A DNA stretch of 63,804 nt, counting the filler. It is 14 parts of 14 records of this genome, joined end to end, with 100 filler letters (N's around TTAATTAATTAA, not from the genome) between each part and the next. Parts side by side here need not be neighbours in the genome. Positions count along the whole stretch, not along the records: positions 50,410 to 54,786 come from SRR15195285_791; 13 more parts are not named here. One strand, written 5' to 3'. Numbering within the stretch: the first letter of the stretch is position 1; each line of letters opens with the position of its first letter. Below are positions 6,936 to 60,753 of the stretch, piece by piece. The notes under the pieces are model-generated. The model searched no databases. It was given only the letters and a program-made list of their open reading frames with translations, and was not told the origin of the DNA. The translations under genes and the position numbers were made by a program.

Positions 6936-7035
6936 NNNNNNNNNNNNNNNNNNNNNNNNNNNNNNNNNNNNNNNNNNNNTTAATTAATTAANNNNNNNNN
7001 NNNNNNNNNNNNNNNNNNNNNNNNNNNNNNNNNNN
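6936..7035. other. artificial contig linker
   Basis: 44 N + TTAATTAATTAA + 44 N. Confidence 0.99.
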
Positions 7036-10430: not shown

Positions 10431-10530
10431 NNNNNNNNNNNNNNNNNNNNNNNNNNNNNNNNNNNNNNNNNNNNTTAATTAATTAANNNNNNNNNNNNNN
10501 NNNNNNNNNNNNNNNNNNNNNNNNNNNNNN
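10431..10530. other. artificial contig linker
   Basis: 44 N + TTAATTAATTAA + 44 N. Confidence 0.99.
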
Positions 10531-50309: not shown

Positions 50310-50409
50310 NNNNNNNNNNNNNNNNNNNNNNNNNNNNNNNNNNNNNNNNNNNNTTAATTAATTAANNNNNNNNNNNNNNNNNNNNNNNNNNNNNNNNNNN
50401 NNNNNNNNN
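50310..50409. other. artificial contig linker
   Basis: 44 N + TTAATTAATTAA + 44 N. Confidence 0.99.
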
Positions 50410-50648
50410 ACTTCTTCCAGCGGTGCAATCTGGGCACTGACTGTGGCTGAGAACGCCAGCGCATACAACCACGTACATGTATGTATCTGTACAAGATTCA
50501 TGTACTATTCTGTACAGCCTGGCTGTATCTTGAATCATACTCTGAGATCGTACCGCCGCCGGTACGCCGACTGGGTGGTCGACCGTCCGGCCCTCCGCCC
50601 GACGGATCCTCGCCCTGCTGCCCACAGGGGGGTGGATCTGTCGGGGCA

Positions 50649-52749
50649 ATGGAGGCGGCTGGTGATGGCGGTGGAGTAGTGCGACATGTATCGGTCGAAG
50701 AGTGGGAGGCGCGCATCCAGCCAGAGGGTGCGGTGGGGGCTGATCCGACGGTCGCGCTGACAGCGGCGTGTGGGACGCTCTGTGCGATCCCTCGTGCATT
50801 CGTCGACCGGTGCGGCACGCTCGTGGAGATGCTGGAGGGCGGTGCGGCGGACGTGTCCGGGCCACCCATGCTCGAGGTTCCGGACGTGAGAGACTTTGCA
50901 GTGCTTCTGTCCCTCGAGCAAGCAGACGACGCAGCCTGGGAGCGAGCCAGGCTTGCTCGCATCTGCCACGTTGCATCGTTTCTCGGTCACGAGGCACTGT
51001 TGCGCAAATCTCTTGCCGTCCTCGCCAGCATCATTACACGGACGGGTAACCTGAGCGACCTCGTCGGAGAGATCGACAGCCTGTCGCCGCTGGTGGATCG
51101 CTTGGTCGTGGCCATGCTCTCGGCGACTGATCCAGGTGTACCACCACTCTCTACCCTCGAGGAGGTCGCCACGGCAGTAAGTGCATGGCAGGCGAGTGCC
51201 CACACCCTCGAGTCCGAGCCCGAGTCCGAGGGTGGTGCCGTACACCCACTGCATGAGGGCCATCCGCCGAAGCGACGACGGTCACTGCAAGCAGTAGCGG
51301 CAGCGGTGGGTCCAGCAGCGGTAGCCGCCACCATATCCAAGCTGGAGCTTGACCAATTGGATCCTGACACCATGCTCGCCCTCTTTTCGTGCATGGACCT
51401 GAGCTCATGTGTGCGCCTGATTCAGTGCAGCTTTAGTGCCGTGTCAATGGTCTTCACAGATTCCGACAGTTGGAAGTTCGCTTTTCGCGCTTGGTCCGCG
51501 GTCCTACAGGACCCTTTGACGAGTGATGCTACGTTGCCACAGCCGAGCATGGTCGACGCCGCGACGCTGGAAGCGATCCAAGTTCAGCCAGACGGTGCTG
51601 ATTCTGCCGGATGGATCGATCGGGTAGCCCGACTTGTTCGGCTGGTTCGTGATATGCACGGTTTCGCTCTCATCGGCCGAACCCAACAAGAGACTCCTCG
51701 TGATCCGCTGGAGAAGATCGCCTGGGTAGCGGCGCGTGCAGAGCAGCTGGGCGGCCCAGATCCACATGATCTACTGGCTGCCAGACTCCTGGTTCCTCAC
51801 ATGCGAGCTGTGGTCTACAGTGCTTGCACTGAGAAGCGCTTACCAGACGGAGCCTGGGCTCAGGCCATCGAGGCCTTTTCGCGCGTGGTTGACCACAGCA
51901 CTGCAGTGTCTGCGTCAGTTGCACAGGCGGAGCTGTCCGCTAGCAGTGACGGTGGACTGTTGAAAGCAGGCGGTGAGCAGCAACGGCGCCTCGATGATGC
52001 GTGGGTCCGTTGCACAGGCGCGCACACACTACAGCGAGCTATCTTCGCAGCCTTGAATGAGCATTTGCGGAGGGCACATGAGCCGACGCTGCTGGAGAGA
52101 TGCGAACGGTCTGTATCAGCAGCCTCCGTGTGGGCACAATGGCAGGAGCGCGGCTGGGTCCAGCCGACAATGCAGCCCACTGAAGAACTAGAAGATGCAG
52201 TCGATCATGTCAAACTGCTCGCAACAGATGGCGAAATTTTTACCGTCAGCATTGGCGTGGCACAGACATTTGATGCAGTGAAGGAAACCCTCCAGGCGTG
52301 GCAGATCACAGGCCATGTCCCTCGCACAGCGATTCCAGTAGGAGAACTGGAATCCCCAGTACTCGCCAAGGCGATCGAATTTGCCACGTATCACCATATG
52401 GCTGAAAGTATTGCAGAGGACGCCGTGGCCGAGTGGGTAAAACAGTTCATAGATGTTGACCAGGGGATTTTGTTCCACCTCATTTTGGCTGCCAACTTGC
52501 TCGGCCACAAGGTGTTGCTAGACACCGGCTGCAAGGCAGTTGCCGACATGATCAAAGGCAAGACTCCAGAGGAAATTCGTGTGCGTCCAGAGCAATTGAG
52601 TCCGTTGCATTCTGATTCTGGACTGTTTTCGGCTTATGCGTTATGGAAACTATGATGCCCACCAGGCACATTTCAACATTCAGAACGACTTCACGCCGGA
52701 AGAAGAGGAAGAGGTTCGACGGGAGAACGCGTGGTGCGAAGATATTTGA
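50649..52749 (+). CDS. Skp1-domain fusion protein: degenerate Skp1 + F-box-like + cullin-repeat-like + canonical Skp1 (2 exons)
   Basis: C-terminal Skp1 is clear: [85 protein letters not shown] (intron 52581-52665). The other modules are pattern-based; see findings. Confidence 0.85.
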
Positions 52750-52819
52750 AAGCTTCTTGTGAGTCAAAGGATAATGGATTACGCACGCATGGACGCCAGT
52801 AGATGCTTTGCACTGGCTG

Positions 52820-54180
52820 TCACGAACTGCCATCCGGTACCACAAGTCCGAGTTCTGCCATAAGCATCTGCATCATCCCATCGCATTCGATGTGGAAACG
52901 CAGCGTGCAGTGCTTATCCAACGGAGTACGCTGCAAGTTGACGATGACCATTTCGCGCCGCGGCCCGCCGGCGTCTTCGCCAGGAAGCACGTCTTCGTCA
53001 CTGCTCTCGTCCCCGTAATCCTCTTCGTCGTCGCTGTCGCTATCTTCATTCTCGTCTGGCCATTCCCAGCCTAGTGCAAGCAGCTGCAGCACAAAATTCC
53101 CACCGGTCGAATTCATCAGAGCAAAGCGAACATGTAACAAAGTCAATGTGGGGTCCGGTACGCGCGTATGCGTACTGCAAAAGGGACAATAGGCACATAG
53201 CCACATAGCCACAGAGATACTGTTACAAAGCTTCCACGTACCGGCATGTCGCCAACTGGCTTTATCCGCAGCGAAGTACCCATGGCTATCGACATCGTGG
53301 CCTTGCGTGCTCGCCGCTCTGTCCGCCGTACGTGGTCCTTGGGTAGCGCATCGTCCCAGTCTAGCACGTGGTCACGCAACATCCCGCCGCACTCGTCACA
53401 CTTGCGGCCGGTCGGCCGCAAACCGACACCGCCTACATCATCGGCGCGGTGAAATTCGGCGTGACACTCGGAGCAGACTTCGAGGCAGACGTTGCCGTGC
53501 AGCTCAGAGAGTTTGTTGAGCGGCGCTCCCGCCCGCCGGTGCAGACCGTCTACGTTTTGAGTTGCGATGTGGTTGATGTAGCCCGCAGTCACCAGAGCCG
53601 TTAGCGCGTGGTGGGTGAAGGAGGGTTTGACTGCTCCAAATGAACTGGCCAAGCGCGGCTCGGCTCCAGCGCCGCTCGCATTGCGTTTCAGTTTGCCACT
53701 TTCCTGCTGCTGCTTAGTCCAGATGCCATGCGGCCCTCGGAAGTCGGGCAGGCCCGCTGAGGTCGAGATGCCCGCGCCGGTGCAGCACCAGACCCTACCC
53801 TTGTGCTGCCGCAGAAGCTCGGCCAGCTTGGTCACCTTTCGCTGCACAGCCCGAGTGGACTCGCGAGTTTCCTTCAGCCCGCACACTCCGTAGTCGACAT
53901 CTTGCCGCAGCCGTGCAGCGTACCCGGCTACGTTGTTCTCCGGCCCATCCGCTTCGCCTGCGCTGGGCGGGGGCACGAGCGCCCTCGCTTTCTTTCTACC
54001 TGCCTCGCGGGTCACTTCGCCAGCTGCAGCGCGGGCTGCAGCGCCGGCTGATGCGGCAGGGCGCTTCTCGAGGCACCGATTGACGTGCACCTGCCTCTGT
54101 CCTTCGTCCAGCGAACTCAGCGCTGCGCCACAGACCGGGCACGGCTCCACCACTTGCGCAGCACTGCGCTTCGCAGCCAT
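52820..54180 (-). CDS. class IV sirtuin (SIRT6/7-like NAD-dependent deacylase) with N-terminal UBZ-type zinc finger (2 exons)
   Basis: TGAGISTSAGLPDFRGPHGIWT, TQNVDGLH, ELHGN, CSEC/CDECGG, LDWDDALP, GTSLRIKP, IVNLQRTPLD. N-terminal CPVCG...HVNRC. Confidence 0.92.
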
Positions 54181-54337
54181 TTATTATGGGCACCTCGGGA
54201 TCAACTCAGGAACACGTCGGCAGCAGGGCGGATGGAAGGACGGAGCGCTGGTTGGTGCTGCCGGGGTGGCGGCTGCGTGGCGTTGGTCGCTGAATCGTGA
54301 ACGACTGAACGTCGCGGCGGGCCAAAATGGGTGACAC

Positions 54338-54560
54338 TATTCGAATATCAATACCAGTAGTAGGATTCCTACCCGGTACCCGGGTACTACGTACGCTATA
54401 CTGTACTGCTCTACAGTCCGGAGTGTACTAGTAGGACATGTACAGCGGTGTACCTGGAGGCGTACAGACGATGGTCCCATTTTCCCGGGTCTCCGGGATC
54501 GTGTACACACAACCGTACATGTACTAGATCTAGCTAGCTATCATAGTACATGATTGTACA
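54338..54560. promoter_or_regulatory. GTAC/CTAG-rich palindromic tract upstream of the sirtuin gene
   Basis: TATTCGAATA (54338-54347), many GTAC, TACTAGATCTAG (54522-54533); same motifs as at 21055-21180. Function inferred. Confidence 0.5.
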
Positions 54561-54786
54561 GTGTACACAGACCCTGCACAAAATGACAAAATGGAAAATG
54601 CTTGGCTCGTGGGGTTGGGCGTTTTCCCTAGGAGCAGGTGGATGGAGCGCACGTTCGACGCGTGTACATCATTCAGCGCGTGTACCGTACATCGGGTACT
54701 TCGGTGTACACTCTCTAGAGAGCCCGCATGCCACGCTCCCTCTCCCGCTCCACTCCCGCTGCCGCCTCGCGTTCCCAGCGAGCTGG

Positions 54787-54990: not shown

Positions 54991-57900
54991 TTAATCAGTC
55001 GGCTTTGCGCTAGACATGAGGTTCGAGACGGTTGCCACGTGTGATACTGGAAACGAGACACCACCCAGTGCAACGGACCTGGCTGTACTAGCAGAACTCG
55101 GCCTCCTGCCGTCGTTGCTGACGCTGCTGCTTGTACCCACACCACTGTCATGGAAAACATCGGTCGACTTGCTCCGTTTCGTGCTTCGTCTTGCCGCTGC
55201 TGATAACGGTCGACTTACCACAACGGGTGGGGTGGCACGATGCGCATGCGTGGATGCGGGCACCGGCCCTGCTGAAGCTGGCCTCGCCCGACGCTGTGCA
55301 AGCTCGTTGCGCAGCAGAGCAGGCTCCTCATGCGGCATTTGCATAGCCATGAGCTGCGAACGCACAGGGTCCGGTAGAGCGTTCTCATTATTGGGGTTGA
55401 CCCACGATGCTGTTGCCGCGACCTCATCGCGCACGAGAAAAGCATTCCGGTGACCATGCGCAGGAGCCCACGTTTCTTCTTCAGGGATTTTCCCACCCGC
55501 AGCGTCTGGCACCGACGGATAGCTTGCGGCAGGTTGACGCTTCCCTGGCTCACTGACTACCTGCTGCACGCGCTGACTCGGTTCATATGCTGCAGCACCA
55601 ATGCTCACTGCTGTGCCAGAGCTCTGCTCCACGCCCGCACTAGGGCTGGCCGAGCGCGGGCGGGTAAAACTCGAAAGCTCTGGTGAAAGCGTAGTGAGTG
55701 TGCCGCCCCAGCTGCCTGCAGACATAGGCCGATCCGTACGATCCGTACCGGAAGCGGATCTCACTACGCCGGGCGGGCTCGCACCCCGTGGAGTCGGATG
55801 CTCCGGACTGCCAGAGTATATGTCGACAATGCCAGCACCTGCTTCTGGTTGCTCTGGGAGTGATGTCGACTGTCGCTTGGCACCAGGCGGAGGTGGACTG
55901 TGCACGGGACCCGGGCTGCCCATCCCGATGGAATGTGCGTCACGTGCCCACAACGCTCTGCCTCGGAAGCCCGCGCCCGCCTCGGCTTTAAGCTGGCGCA
56001 CACGTTCCTCAGTTGTGGCCTTAACGACGGGGTCTTTGCGTCCATGTGCAAACAGCTCAGCAGAAAGCGGTCGTCGGGGTAACTTGTATGCATGCTCGTT
56101 TTCAAACCCCAGCGAAGCGGGCGGGTTGTGAAGATCTACCGCCTCATGACGCAGGTGCCCGGCAGAGTGAGGCCTTGCAGCAACCGCTGCCATCTCCGCC
56201 GCACTCCGCTCCGACTGCCGGACTGAAGTAGTCGCAGCAGCAGAGAGAGGGCGACCTTTCACAAAGACGTCAGAGCCATATCCTGCAGGATGCTGCCCTC
56301 CGTATCCATCCTGAGTGTAGTCGGGTTGTCGTGTCGCAGAGCGTGGGCGCAACGCTGCCTCAGTCGGAGTCTCATATTGCTGCGCGCCCGTAACTTGGTT
56401 CACAAACACAGTACGGCCTGAGCTCTCAGAGATATGAGGTTTCCATCCCGAGGGCAGTTTTGCTCGCGAGTCAACTCCAGCGGCAAACATCTTCTGGAGT
56501 AGAGACGCCTCCTCGACAATCTCACCCCGGGCCTTCGCAGCCTTGCGACGTCGAGCCTCCGCCTGCGTGGACGATTGTACGGTGGCACTCTCTGCAGCTG
56601 CTCTTTCTTGTTCCGCTACCCGTCGCATCGAGGGTCGAGCTGAATAAGGACGCTTCGGTGGCTGAAGCTCTTGTGGCAACGCAGCGGCTCGAGCCACGTT
56701 GGACGCATCAGCATACCGCTCCGCCATTGCAGATGAAGGGCGACGCACACCGTAGCCGGATGTTGCTCCTGCGCCTCGATAAGTGAGTTGCGAGAGCATC
56801 GACTGGTCCATTGACGGGAGTTTTGCATTGGCTGCCATGTCTGACTCTGGTCCGGCATGCTCGTAGTAGTGACTGGCTACCTGCCGCTCACCACGCTTTG
56901 CGTGTGCACGCGCCATTAGGTTGTTTGCCTGAGTGTGCTGTGAGTCCAAGGATAGAACGTGACGAAGCTGAATTTCCTGTGCGGCGCTGCCCGGTGGCAT
57001 CAGCTCAGCCAGCTCCATGCTCGGCACGAGATAGTCCGGATAAAGCTGCAATGCTGTGCGGTGGCAAAAGATTGATCGGCCTTTCCAGCCAGGAGCCCTC
57101 CTCGCACTGACCGCCAACCCAAGCGACGCGAGCACGGCGGCCCGTCCATGTGCCGCCTCTTCGTTTAACTCCCATACGCCGAGCTTCCAACCGGTATTCA
57201 GCGTTCCAACACGAAGCTGCCCAGCGTAGGCACCAGCTCGGAACTTCCCTCCACGCCCATCCCCTTCTGCGCGTCGCTTGTATCCTTCTTGCAGATGGGC
57301 ACATTGCGTGTAGTTGGTGATCGCCTCGTCGATCAGTTTGCGTTTGACTGCCTCTGTGTGATCGTGGGCTGCTTCGGAGACGGGTTCAATCGCCAGGGCT
57401 TGTCGATGAAGGGCTGCAGCCAGGCAGTGGTGAACTTCCGGGCTGCCAGGGTACATGACACAGAGCCGTCGAAGCAATGCACAGGCCTCTTCAAGCTCTG
57501 CAGACGCTCCTAAAGTCCCTTTCGTATCGTCGCCTTGTGCCGCAGGAGGAGTCTGATGCTCCCCATCTTCTATTTCTTCTGCAGAAGAAGAAGAGTTGAG
57601 GAGCAGTAAGGCCAGGTTAGTTGACGCAAGCTGATGGTCGGGGACCGTCTGCAATAATTGTCGAAGCATGGCGGCCGCTTCCTTGACCTGCCCCTGCGAG
57701 CTCAATACGCAAGCCAGGTTGACTGAGACCTTCGCCCGGAGATTTTCTGCGTCCTTCTCGGAACCCCCAGCAGTCACAGCTGCATTCGGTGCCAAAGCTT
57801 TCCTTAAATGCATCTCTGCTGACGATGTTGATTCCTCGTCTTTTCTTTGCAGCAAGAGCGTTGCCAGGTTGTAACGCGAATGTATACATAATCCGTTGTA

Positions 57901-60489
57901 CTTGACAGCCTGCTCAAACTGCTTCATCGCGTCGTCATCGTCACCACGAAGCAACGCAGCCCAGCCCATGCGGTTGAAAAGCTCGGCGCAGTACAATCCA
58001 TCCGCAGATCTTGATATGGCCTCCTTGTACTTTGCGCAGGCTTTGCTGTACGCCTCTTGCTGAAACAAACGGTCGCCTTCCTGTACAACTTCTCTCGTCG
58101 TTGGGCCTGCAAGCTGGGTATAAGTCCAGCGCTTAATTGACTCCCAGCATCCGGGCGGGGCCCCTTGTAGCATATCGAGGACATCCTCCGGCGCGACTCG
58201 GGATGCTGCTTTGTGTCGCTGTTGTAATGTCTTGAATCGTCGATGGGCGAACCACGCCTCTGCGGTTCCGAAGAGCACTCCGCCGCTCAATAGAATGATT
58301 TGCCCCGTCGGAATCAAAGTGCAGGTCTCCAGCCTTGGCACAAACCTTAACCAGGGCGACGATTTTGGCCGTGCCCCCAGTGCCGCGACATCTTCACTTC
58401 CCCAGCTACCTTCTTCCTGCCCACCCCCGCTACCAGCGGCATTAGCTACTGGTGGGGCTGCTCCCCATTCGCAGATGGCGGCTCCAGCTTCGACTAATGT
58501 CGCACCGACAGTAATCCAGGCAAGTGCCGACGCTAATCGCCACGTGCGCCTACCTATGGGCTTGTCGTTATCGCTTCGGCAGCTCATGTACGCGAATAGA
58601 ATGAAACGAAGAGTAGCTAGCCAGGCCACGTCGGCAGATGCACCGCCTGCTTCACCTGGGACACTTGGTGCGGCCCAGTGCAGGTTTATCTGCGGCCCGT
58701 CAAACCAGCACAGAAATCTTCCAGAGGAAATTGTTCCCTCTTCCGTGACTGTCTTGCAGTGAGTGACAGAAGTCCAGGTCAGCCACACACCCAGACACTC
58801 TAACACAAGCACTATAACCAGTATCCGCTCCTTGCGCAACCCATTGCGCCGCCGCTGCTCCAGATGTGACAACGACAGCAGAAGTGTGGCCACGAGAATG
58901 TTGCCCCCGATCGATGTCGCAACCAGACCAAGTAAGGCAACTGTCCACTCGGATGAGTGAGCGTACATTGCGCGCTGCGCTACCTTGACGACCAGTGCAG
59001 TGAGACACAAAATGACTAGGCATGCTGCGATCTTCCATACGATACCCCACGGCGCGACACGACCTTCTGATCGGTCGTTGGCAAGCACCTCACCAGGCTC
59101 GCGTATCGCAACTGAGACGTCCGCACGCGCGGCATCGTCTGGCGGCGACTCGTTTTGTATTGGCGGCTTTGAGCCCAGTAAGTTCTTCAGTGGCGGTGCA
59201 GGGATATACGTGGGTAACTCCGTAAGGCTCCACAGCTCATCAGTGAATCCAAGCGTCGGGTCGGTCCACAGGACCTTGATGGAATGACTCCGACGCAGGC
59301 CCAATTCCCTTGCGATTTTCTCCTCCAACTCAGGCACAGTGCACACAGTCAGTGTCATCGTAAGCATCCCTGCATCGTCTTCGAACATTCGCTTCGGGTC
59401 GACAAACAACGGCGCGAGACGGTCATCCTCGGAGGACACGCGAAGGTGCAGCACTTGTTTACCCTGAACCCGGCCGTAATGCCGCGCCCAAACTACCAGT
59501 AGAAGCACAGTGTTTCGCGCCCAGCACAGTACCAGCACATCAATTAGTGAGGTCGTGAAGTTGTAGTACTGCAGCGTGTCCAGGCCAGCGAAGGACTTCA
59601 GCGAGAATCTCGGAGGTTCCCACCAGCAGAAGACGTTGGTTGGGAAGCCGTCATCATCGTCACACTGCGTAATCGAAAACCAGCCACACAGGGCGAAGAG
59701 GACATCGGCACTTGCTATGACTGCGAGCATGATCGTCGCCCGACGATTCAGCGCGTGTCGCCGTATCGCGGCTTCCATAGATGGAGGCACCCAATCTGCC
59801 TCCTCTTCCTCCTCTGTCTTCATAATCTTGGCCGTGGGCTTGACCAGCCATTCGTGGTGCTCTTCCGAGTGTGCGGGGATGAGCTGGAATCGCTCAGGCT
59901 CGGCAGCTGTGTCGTCATGAGCACCACCGACATCACCTGAGGTATCGGATCTGTCGGTCGCCTGCCCTCCCTGCGGCTGCTGCGCGGCGGGCAGCGGCGC
60001 AGCCATTCCTTGCTGCAGCGAGACGGCGTGCGCAGCCCGGACGTTGCCAACGAGCAGGTGGCGAGCAACCAGTGTGCCCAGCGTAGGGAGCAGCCTCTCC
60101 GTTTCACACACCTTACCCCATGCCAGGCGCTGCCGGGCCACGGCTAGGCGCCGATGCAGCGCTGCGCTCGGCGCCAGGTACTTTTCCTGGATGACAGCGA
60201 GCAGAGCCTCCTCCTCCCCGACCCACTCCTGCTCCAACAGCACATCGATGTCACCGTCTAGCTTCCTTGGGTTGTGCACCGCGTAGATTTCTGCAATCCG
60301 CTCTCGTACTTCCGCCGTGTCGATCGACGGCTCCGGCTCTGGCTCCGGCTCCACGAGTTGCATCGAAAAGTCCAGCTGCCGTTGAATCTGCCACTCTCCC
60401 GACAGCCGTGAGTCCTCGCCGCCCTCCTGCATCTCCTGCTCCACGGCGTCACCACGCCCATCCAGCCCGCCCCGCGTATGCCCCAGCAT
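54991..60489 (-). CDS. large membrane protein: two MENTAL-like 4-TM units, TPR repeats, WW domain, disordered tail with RPxSA repeats
   Basis: 1832-aa intronless ORF. YNFTTSLIDVLVLCWARNTVL resembles the STARD3 MENTAL YNFKTSFFDIFVLAFFRF. TPR-like EGDRLFQQEAYSKACAKYKEAI and SRYNLATLL. WW-like LPSGWKPHISESSGRTVFVNQVTGAQQYETP. Confidence 0.75.
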   Translation of the reverse strand: MLGHTRGGLDGRGDAVEQEMQEGGEDSRLSGEWQIQRQLDFSMQLVEPEPEPEPSIDTAEVRERIAEIYAVHNPRKLDGDIDVLLEQEWVGEEEALLAVIQEKYLAPSAALHRRLAVARQRLAWGKVCETERLLPTLGTLVARHLLVGNVRAAHAVSLQQGMAAPLPAAQQPQGGQATDRSDTSGDVGGAHDDTAAEPERFQLIPAHSEEHHEWLVKPTAKIMKTEEEEEADWVPPSMEAAIRRHALNRRATIMLAVIASADVLFALCGWFSITQCDDDDGFPTNVFCWWEPPRFSLKSFAGLDTLQYYNFTTSLIDVLVLCWARNTVLLLVVWARHYGRVQGKQVLHLRVSSEDDRLAPLFVDPKRMFEDDAGMLTMTLTVCTVPELEEKIARELGLRRSHSIKVLWTDPTLGFTDELWSLTELPTYIPAPPLKNLLGSKPPIQNESPPDDAARADVSVAIREPGEVLANDRSEGRVAPWGIVWKIAACLVILCLTALVVKVAQRAMYAHSSEWTVALLGLVATSIGGNILVATLLLSLSHLEQRRRNGLRKERILVIVLVLECLGVWLTWTSVTHCKTVTEEGTISSGRFLCWFDGPQINLHWAAPSVPGEAGGASADVAWLATLRFILFAYMSCRSDNDKPIGRRTWRLASALAWITVGATLVEAGAAICEWGAAPPVANAAGSGGGQEEGSWGSEDVAALGARPKSSPWLRFVPRLETCTLIPTGQIILLSGGVLFGTAEAWFAHRRFKTLQQRHKAASRVAPEDVLDMLQGAPPGCWESIKRWTYTQLAGPTTREVVQEGDRLFQQEAYSKACAKYKEAISRSADGLYCAELFNRMGWAALLRGDDDDAMKQFEQAVKYNGLCIHSRYNLATLLLQRKDEESTSSAEMHLRKALAPNAAVTAGGSEKDAENLRAKVSVNLACVLSSQGQVKEAAAMLRQLLQTVPDHQLASTNLALLLLNSSSSAEEIEDGEHQTPPAAQGDDTKGTLGASAELEEACALLRRLCVMYPGSPEVHHCLAAALHRQALAIEPVSEAAHDHTEAVKRKLIDEAITNYTQCAHLQEGYKRRAEGDGRGGKFRAGAYAGQLRVGTLNTGWKLGVWELNEEAAHGRAAVLASLGLAVSARRAPGWKGRSIFCHRTALQLYPDYLVPSMELAELMPPGSAAQEIQLRHVLSLDSQHTQANNLMARAHAKRGERQVASHYYEHAGPESDMAANAKLPSMDQSMLSQLTYRGAGATSGYGVRRPSSAMAERYADASNVARAAALPQELQPPKRPYSARPSMRRVAEQERAAAESATVQSSTQAEARRRKAAKARGEIVEEASLLQKMFAAGVDSRAKLPSGWKPHISESSGRTVFVNQVTGAQQYETPTEAALRPRSATRQPDYTQDGYGGQHPAGYGSDVFVKGRPLSAAATTSVRQSERSAAEMAAVAARPHSAGHLRHEAVDLHNPPASLGFENEHAYKLPRRPLSAELFAHGRKDPVVKATTEERVRQLKAEAGAGFRGRALWARDAHSIGMGSPGPVHSPPPPGAKRQSTSLPEQPEAGAGIVDIYSGSPEHPTPRGASPPGVVRSASGTDRTDRPMSAGSWGGTLTTLSPELSSFTRPRSASPSAGVEQSSGTAVSIGAAAYEPSQRVQQVVSEPGKRQPAASYPSVPDAAGGKIPEEETWAPAHGHRNAFLVRDEVAATASWVNPNNENALPDPVRSQLMAMQMPHEEPALLRNELAQRRARPASAGPVPASTHAHRATPPVVVSRPLSAAARRSTKRSKSTDVFHDSGVGTSSSVSNDGRRPSSASTARSVALGGVSFPVSHVATVSNLMSSAKPTD

Positions 60490-60653: not shown

Positions 60654-60753
60654 NNNNNNNNNNNNNNNNNNNNNNNNNNNNNNNNNNNNNNNNNNNNTTA
60701 ATTAATTAANNNNNNNNNNNNNNNNNNNNNNNNNNNNNNNNNNNNNNNNNNNN
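60654..60753. other. artificial contig linker
   Basis: 44 N + TTAATTAATTAA + 44 N. Confidence 0.99.

Follow-up and report, generated by a model that had tools for sequence, protein, structure and literature searches.

In Skp1-cullin-F-box (SCF) ligases, Skp1, the F-box proteins and the cullins are separate subunits, and cullin repeat 1 forms the tip of the cullin, which is the docking place of Skp1 and the F-box. The canonical Skp1 stands alone and measures 150-175 amino acids (aa). Among the described systems that come closest to the locus reported here, the BTB/3-box adaptors of Cul3 (SPOP, 3HTM; KLHL11-Cul3, 4AP2) join a Skp1-like BTB fold and a helical element at the F-box position within one chain; their cullin is a complete, separate protein, and a domain for substrate binding is part of the adaptor. 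Dominant-negative truncated cullins, which are engineered fragments of real cullins, have a cullin tip without the Rbx1-binding end, and a passage of the paper concerned states that dominant-negative CUL1 stabilises SCF substrates (PMC10308361). Here, a gene encoding a protein of about 671 aa is described on the plus strand of a 63,804-nucleotide (nt) stretch of DNA, hereafter designated as the window (the gene lies at positions 50649-52749 of this stretch). The gene is a lineage-specific paralog of Skp1, in which a Skp1 domain is preceded by a long front part (aa 1-516) predicted to contain a degenerate Skp1-like domain, an F-box-like helical motif and a helical bundle resembling cullin repeat 1. 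It is well supported that the architecture of this one chain resembles the arm by which an SCF ligase recruits its substrates, with the catalytic end missing.

An earlier, sequence-only reading of the locus had proposed that all these SCF parts occur in one polypeptide. The C-terminal Skp1 was confirmed by sequence and the N-terminal Skp1-like and cullin-repeat-1-like parts by predicted fold, whereas the F-box part stayed a pattern. Like the BTB/3-box adaptors, the window protein combines a predicted Skp1-like fold with a helical element in one chain, and the best cullin match of its model is Cul3 from a BTB complex; in contrast to these adaptors, a cullin-tip-like part and a second Skp1 are found in the chain itself. 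The absence of an Rbx1-binding end is shared with the truncated cullins, but the gene is natural and conserved, and it combines a part resembling repeat 1 only with fused Skp1-type domains.

The window consists of 14 short contigs (ca. 3-7.5 kb each) joined by N44-TTAATTAATTAA-N44 linkers at positions 6936-7035, 10431-10530, ... 60654-60753. The contig bearing the gene (50410-54786) begins directly after one of these N/TTAATTAATTAA linkers and, since the window is made of joined contigs, the surroundings outside these positions are uninformative on the Skp1-fusion gene. Exon 1, defined from the ORF (open reading frame) list and the translation, begins at the start codon and ends at the splice donor (50649..52580, plus strand, 644 codons), and its ATG at 50649 agrees with the start in P0003, a relative with 80% identity. 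A GT..AG intron of 85 nt, read from the sequence (52581..52665, plus strand), separates it from exon 2 (52666..52749, plus strand), which was recognised by its Pfam Skp1 match and contains the last 27 Skp1 codons and the stop codon. With this one intron removed, the product comprises about 671 aa. The exon 2 peptide matched positions 26-48 of the 48 in the Pfam Skp1 profile (E-value 2.2e-12, 47 bits), and exon 1 ends at profile position 25. Without splicing, the ORF meets a stop at 52653-52655, inside the intron, and it is this read-through version that occurs in public gene calls (P0002, P0004). Compared with P0003, the identity of the read-through falls to 50%, with gaps, exactly at the intron, and in the intronless relatives P0005, P0006, P0162 and P0163 the sequence ...EEIR continues directly into AHFNIQ... 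The single frame that had been read as open up to 52749 is thus real and lies where it was placed, but it is interrupted by the intron and the ORF is not continuous. From the triplet make-up of the contig, the chance of a stop-free run of 516 codons was estimated at about 7e-6. Minus-strand ORFs are also present (50535-51263 and 50362-50997), but relatives with 27-40% identity match the plus frame, and a chance ORF or an opposite-strand gene was therefore rejected.

The fused frame belongs to a family of its own. A phmmer search with aa 1-516 against 1.84 billion representative proteins returned 11 matches at E<=1e-3, all from one family, and word-based searches added three more full-length members, P0003, P0162 and P0163. 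In Pfam, this front part had no match at E<=10 except a sub-threshold one to DUF7029. In seven full-length clusters with 27-80% identity, a single ORF covers both the front part and Skp1; the identity to the window protein is 99% for P0002 (the window's own cluster), 80% for P0003, ca. 34-37% for P0005, P0162 and P0163, 30% for P0008, and 27% for P0010. A complete Skp1 is traversed without an intron in P0005, P0006, P0042, P0162 and P0163, and the ends of P0008 and P0010 resemble intron read-throughs inside the Skp1 domain. A scan of metagenomes for the DNA of P0003 yielded no locus, and conservation was judged by in-frame indels and block-wise identity. Compared with P0003, blocks are 75.5-88.7% identical and indels are in-frame only. 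Between lineages, identity reaches 31.9% for the Skp1-like domain, 28.9% for the linker that follows it, 46.1% for the F-box-like motif, 25.0% for the helical linker, 33.5% for the cullin-like bundle, and 42.1% for Skp1. The same architecture could thus be traced in full-length relatives down to 27% identity, and the claim of one polypeptide is supported, with the front part and Skp1 in one frame in seven clusters and no conserved Met before Skp1.

As for names, the relatives bear none other than the EukProt labels given to two single-cell co-assemblies of Picozoa; all others were retrieved from environmental assemblies (ENA, JGI, NCBI and Logan). No relatives are known outside picozoan assemblies and marine environmental data. 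Because these relatives are 27-80% identical to the window protein and the assembly is fragmented, the window is taken as picozoan, and the host of the gene, a small marine protist, is probably a member of this group. In one of the labelled co-assemblies, the homolog is called as two adjacent genes, 19 (P0007) and 18 (P0006), on one contig and split inside the F-box-like motif, and a homolog called as two ORFs (P0012/P0013) occurs in a second lineage. These splits point to a further intron or frameshift at that place. A protein of 293 aa, P0052, displays an extended-type Skp1 domain (WMATGG loop) after a different N-terminal stretch; it may result from an ORF call that spans a frameshift or an intron in a gene like P0163.

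The C-terminal Skp1 is the part of the protein that sequence searches recognise. Its exon-1 portion (aa 518-644; 52200..52580, plus strand) was detected by Pfam and phmmer, scoring above the cut-offs of both Skp1_POZ (PF03931, 27.8 bits vs 21.9) and Skp1 (PF01466, 38.5 bits vs 22.3), and aa 517-644 matched solved Skp1 chains (phmmer E 1.1e-21 for 5ibk_A). In the model of the complete P0005, the C-terminal domain was aligned with Skp1 1ldk_D at a VIA-align Z of 15.7, and the P0005 Skp1 domain is ca. 55-59% identical to plant Skp1. The prediction of a canonical Skp1 at the C-terminus was borne out by both Pfam models and by phmmer and, as judged by sequence, the C-terminal 154 aa are a complete, genuine Skp1. 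In contrast to the stand-alone canonical form, this copy follows a 517-aa front part; the Tyr of AANY has been lost, and a new loop motif is present. A Tyr after AAN is found in 78 of 81 canonical Skp1 sequences versus none of nine extended-type domains; when Phe is counted as well, an aromatic residue occupies this site in 80/81 versus 0/9, and the window protein has a Leu. In human Skp1, this Tyr lies in the Cul1 interface and contacts Cul1. Where the canonical protein has an acidic loop, most extended-type members have a paralog-specific W/F-x-A/S-T-G-G-x-P motif. A weak phmmer match to chains of gamma-tubulin complex component 6 (E 1.8e-4) was also recorded at aa 496-586 (52134-52406); this match straddles the boundary between the cullin-like bundle and Skp1, fold searches give it no support, and a relation with this component was rejected.

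Canonical Skp1 persists beside the extended form. A search with the Skp1 domain of P0005 against shorter proteins identified a canonical stand-alone Skp1 of 156 aa (P0051), which shares its last 27 residues with the window protein, and the two labelled co-assemblies that contain the extended form also contain canonical fragments (P0060, P0082) on different contigs. In a maximum-likelihood tree of 58 Skp1 rows, seven extended-type and six canonical picozoan-type sequences form one set versus the 45 others (support 100/99), within which a branch with support 93/88 sets the extended type apart, whose own branches are longer; a quick tree agrees. The occurrence of a stand-alone canonical Skp1 in the same lineage makes the extended gene a paralog.

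The AlphaFold2 models were confident and reached a mean predicted local distance difference test (pLDDT) of 75.2 and a predicted template modelling score (pTM) of 0.67 for aa 1-516 of the window protein, and 80.0 and 0.70, respectively, for the complete P0005. The high pTM of both models suggests that the domains may be packed in a fixed way. Structural comparisons were performed with VIA-align on a target set of 48,161 PDB representatives. The first domain of the front part (aa 33-190; 50745..51218, plus strand) begins with two strands (34-38 and 44-48) followed by helices, with pLDDT mostly 85-92. Residues 33-163 of the model align with residues 2-160 of the Skp1 chain 6o60_D (Z 12.2, root-mean-square deviation (rmsd) 3.7, 127/148 aligned, 14% identity). 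Dozens of Skp1 entries reach Z 10.9-12.2 when VIA-align is run on Foldseek's top chains, and in the wide search Skp1 1ldk_D (Z 10.6) is ahead of ordinary BTB domains (<=9.5). Foldseek with the window front part also returned Skp1 chains (E 0.1-0.3, prob 1.00), and the best Protein Atlas match, which is a lead only, was a cluster of 'BTB domain-containing protein' (0.79). The degenerate N-terminal Skp1/BTB copy noticed in the sequence-only reading is therefore upheld as a predicted fold (Z 12.2), without confirmation by sequence profiles. The domain is predicted to be Skp1-like, with a BTB core and the C-terminal helices of Skp1; it would share the fold of Skp1 through helix 8 while being unrecognisable by sequence.

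The helical bundle next to the C-terminal Skp1 (aa 349-505; 51693..52163, plus strand) was delimited by VIA-align of the AlphaFold2 models. Residues 344-507 of the window model superpose on residues 26-186 of Cul3 (4ap2_B, Z 13.3, 135 aligned, rmsd 3.2), and further rows include Cul2 4wqo_D (11.7), Cul4B 4a64_A (10.8), CUL5 8fvi_x (9.2) and Cul5 (8.4). For this helical part, the three best rows are cullins, and the best non-cullin has Z 8.1. Foldseek's top chains realigned with VIA-align gave similar values (Cul3 8k8t_C 13.2, Cul4 12.2, CUL2 12.0), and the comparison with Cul1 1ldj_A gave Z 11.7 (124 aligned, rmsd 2.6, 13% identity, chain 17-205). With residues 334-487 of the P0005 model, eight cullin entries were retrieved (Cul3 13.4/12.2, Cul2 12.2/9.6, Cul4B 10.9, Cul5 9.0/8.4, Cul1 8.3), all aligned on the first 160-207 residues of the cullin, which correspond to repeat 1. 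The six best rows for the helical part of P0005 are all cullins; the best non-cullin is HUWE1 (Z 8.4), and tethering-complex proteins stand lower in the list (Cog5-Cog7 Z 8.2, Sec3/Sso2 Z 7.4). In one member of the family, P0027, a sub-threshold match to the Pfam Cullin profile (PF00888; E 0.13, 11.4 bits vs 33.2) falls at the matching end of the profile (positions 11-112 of 620). A motif like that of cullin helix 5 is presumably kept in relatives, FGYLDRYYVQR in P0162 being an example, by eye against the cullin consensus. The resemblance to repeat 1 of cullin-1 that had been pointed out at about 51800-52092 is thus reproduced as a predicted fold over a somewhat wider interval (Cul3 Z 13.3, Cul1 Z 11.7). 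As in cullin N-terminal domains (Cul1 1LDJ/1LDK, Cul3 4AP2), the repeat-1-like part lies next to Skp1-type domains, and the predicted bundle of ca. 155 aa superposes on repeat 1 with Z 13.3-8.3 and 124-137 aligned residues. In contrast to cullins, it is only 7-13% identical to them, and repeats 2 and 3 as well as the C-terminal cullin-homology domain, which comprises Rbx1 binding and the neddylation site, are lacking. With aa 505 as the end of the bundle and aa 518 as the first residue of Skp1, the ca. 12 residues between them leave no room for an Rbx1-binding or neddylated part. The whole protein is not a cullin, since the Pfam profile does not match it and the C-terminal domain is absent; nor can it be filed as an F-box protein, whose profile does not match it either.

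Between these two predicted folds lies the F-box-like motif (aa 233-290; 51345..51518, plus strand), recognised from predicted helices and a sequence pattern. Four short helices are predicted (239-247, 251-260, 262-268 and 272-285), with pLDDT of ca. 88-91, and the motif is the best conserved block of the protein, both against P0003 (88.7%) and between lineages. Like the F-box (PF00646/PF12937), with the consensus applied by eye, it covers ca. 45 aa with three short predicted helices and an F-box-like hydrophobic spacing, and a helical linker follows it, as in many F-box proteins; unlike the F-box, it lacks a profile match and the signature Leu-Pro and Trp. The pattern reported at about 51348-51490 is therefore present, and in the most conserved block, but without profile support, and the F-box part of the architecture, based on this by-eye pattern and the predicted helices, is plausible. 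In VIA-align, the BTB/3-box region of SPOP aligns over residues 31..246 of the model and extends to the first F-box-like helix, which hints that the motif may pack on the N-terminal Skp1-like domain at the place of the 3-box or F-box. A complex prediction with the Skp1-like domain and the C-terminal Skp1 of P0005, and the F-box-like segment as partner, gave 0.16 in both runs (mark 0.34); run without the family alignment and with an uncertain partner fold, it speaks neither for nor against binding. Two linkers flank the motif. The first (aa 191-232; 51219..51344, plus strand) is of low confidence in the AlphaFold2 model: pLDDT falls below 50 at aa 195-227. Against P0003, this linker has in-frame indels and the lowest block identity (68%). 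This disordered linker includes PPKRRRS (aa 206-212, 51264-51284), a basic, nuclear-localisation-like stretch kept in P0003 and absent from more distant relatives. The second, a helical linker (aa 291-348; 51519..51692, plus strand; predicted helices 301-311 and 319-345), is the least conserved folded part between lineages.

Based on this organization, we give about even chances to the reading in which the protein mimics the SCF arm in a single chain, without catalysis, and serves as a scaffold or buffer for F-box proteins. The front part would fold back on itself, and the Skp1-like, F-box-like and cullin-tip-like segments would form a built-in assembly that copies the substrate-receptor arm. 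The terminal Skp1 would probably still bind F-box proteins through its last C-terminal helices, which are conserved and unchanged. Lacking a catalytic end, such a protein could not bring an E2 (ubiquitin-conjugating enzyme), and it would keep F-box proteins, or different partners of Skp1, from reaching Cul1-Rbx1 by holding or buffering them, as dominant-negative truncated cullins do experimentally, and would thus be their natural counterpart; alternatively, it may act as a non-degradative Skp1 scaffold. The suggestion of a mini-SCF, or of a decoy without the Rbx1-binding end, fits the absence of the C-terminal cullin part.

Several alternatives have to be weighed against this SCF-arm mimic. 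One is an artefact, either a chimera of single-cell assembly or two same-frame neighbouring genes with Skp1 translated alone. The short contigs and the fragmented assembly would agree with it, as would a Met that precedes the Skp1 fold by 10 residues in P0003 and the window protein. However, this Met is not conserved in P0005, P0163, P0008 and P0010, indels are in-frame only, and the same junction recurs in the seven full-length clusters, which come from NCBI, JGI, ENA and EukProt and go down to 27-35% identity. In view of these three observations, a chimeric contig is very unlikely, as are two genes that share a frame, and we regard the artefact as barely credible. It might also be supposed that the protein is an active SCF subunit, in which the C-terminal Skp1 docks on a real Cul1 and the front part is a fused substrate receptor or regulator. 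That the Skp1 domain passes both Pfam models and ends in 27 residues identical to those of the canonical P0051 speaks for such a subunit, and the linker of ca. 12 residues after the bundle does not alone exclude an open Cul1-binding face. Yet the Tyr kept in 78/81 canonical Skp1 sequences is kept in 0/9 of the extended type, the acidic loop has been replaced by the paralog-specific W-x-A-T-G-G-x-P motif, and the extended-type domain evolves faster than the canonical copy; a cullin-tip-like domain adjoining Skp1 would also be odd if a real cullin tip must bind there. On balance, an active subunit appears unlikely.

The third alternative concerns the front part itself, which may consist of generic folds, namely an alpha/beta domain resembling BTB and a helical bundle of a common kind, and be a lineage-specific extension with, for instance, a non-SCF role of Skp1. 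A number of results weigh on this side and against the SCF-arm mimic. Profile searches in Pfam recovered the C-terminal Skp1 and left the N-terminal, F-box and cullin segments unmatched: at E<=10, there was no match to Skp1/BTB for the N-terminal domain, F-box profiles matched 0/18 family sequences (with HMMER filters dropping most hits above E 0.1), and the Cullin profile matched only one of the 18, below threshold, and not the window protein. With hhalign, the comparison of the N-terminal block with 81 canonical Skp1 sequences was not significant (P 0.056; controls 0.18-0.58). When a family profile was run on the complete set of PDB sequences (E<=10), the matches were limited to Skp1 and Elongin C and fell on the C-terminal domain, without any cullin or F-box chain. 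Foldseek gave nothing at E<=1e-3 for the window front part, with cullins marginal (prob 0.11-0.18); for the full P0005 model its top 50 contained Skp1 chains only, and no usable Protein Atlas match was found for the cullin-like part. The AlphaFold2 models were built on a family alignment of 13 sequences, and the internal docking is a proposal rather than an observation. Finally, the notes to VIA-align warn that unrelated helical bundles can reach Z of about 13 by chance, and cullin-repeat-like bundles are also found in tethering-complex proteins. Against generic folds, the cullin rows lie 4-5 Z units above unrelated rows and all fall on repeat 1, the best N-terminal matches are whole Skp1 chains up to residue 160, beyond BTB cores, and the sole Pfam Cullin match (P0027) is found at the matching profile positions 11-112. 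The co-occurrence of three such parts in one chain beside a real Skp1 is not explained by chance. We therefore consider generic folds quite improbable; if they proved correct, what would be left of the finding is a paralog of Skp1 extended by a long lineage-specific stretch.

Few other features were noted around the gene. On the same contig, a convergent gene on the minus strand (52820-54180) encodes a deacetylase of the Sir2 family (Pfam SIR2, E 2.6e-29), whose N-terminal part shows a CPVCG...C motif resembling a zinc finger. The C-terminal end of this protein is apparently encoded by a second ORF (52820-53212), suggesting that an intron is present near 53143-53212, and the stop of the gene is only ca. 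70 nt from that of the Skp1 gene. The next contig carries an ORF of 1832 aa on the minus strand (54991-60489) with tetratricopeptide (TPR) repeats and a WW domain, and the other contigs include ORFs for a glycoside hydrolase 92, an aldose epimerase, a papain-type protease, an EF-hand/C2/GYF protein, an alpha-galactosidase, and TauE-like proteins.

The window protein is made of known domain types in an undescribed combination. To our knowledge, Picozoa have been recorded through single-cell genomes alone. Searches of open-access full texts brought up no account of an architecture of this kind, as judged from titles and the openings of abstracts and with subscription journals outside this scope, in agreement with the statement of the sequence-only reading that no such protein has been described. 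Open-access literature naming Picozoa together with Skp1 was not found, and the term 'ubiquitin' was not found in the main text, as consulted in part, of the Picozoa single-cell genomics paper (PMC8599508).

The exchange of SCF subunits is an active research question. A conserved Skp1 joined to look-alikes of all three contact partners of the SCF arm, without a catalytic end, would represent a new way to regulate or re-use the SCF arm. Going one step further than the SCF-arm mimic, the protein could be a natural single-chain copy of the substrate-receptor arm tethered to a working Skp1, which arose in the picozoan lineage from the fusion of pieces of three SCF subunit genes and works on F-box proteins as an endogenous competitor or exchange factor. 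This scenario is tentative and somewhat doubtful; if true, it would reveal a so far undescribed kind of regulator of cullin-RING ligases. The protein would also provide a ready-made single-chain model of the Skp1/F-box/cullin-tip interface. Beyond its function, the family illustrates that distant copies of Skp1 and of the cullin repeat, invisible by sequence, can be found by fold, and it represents a lineage marker for Picozoa.

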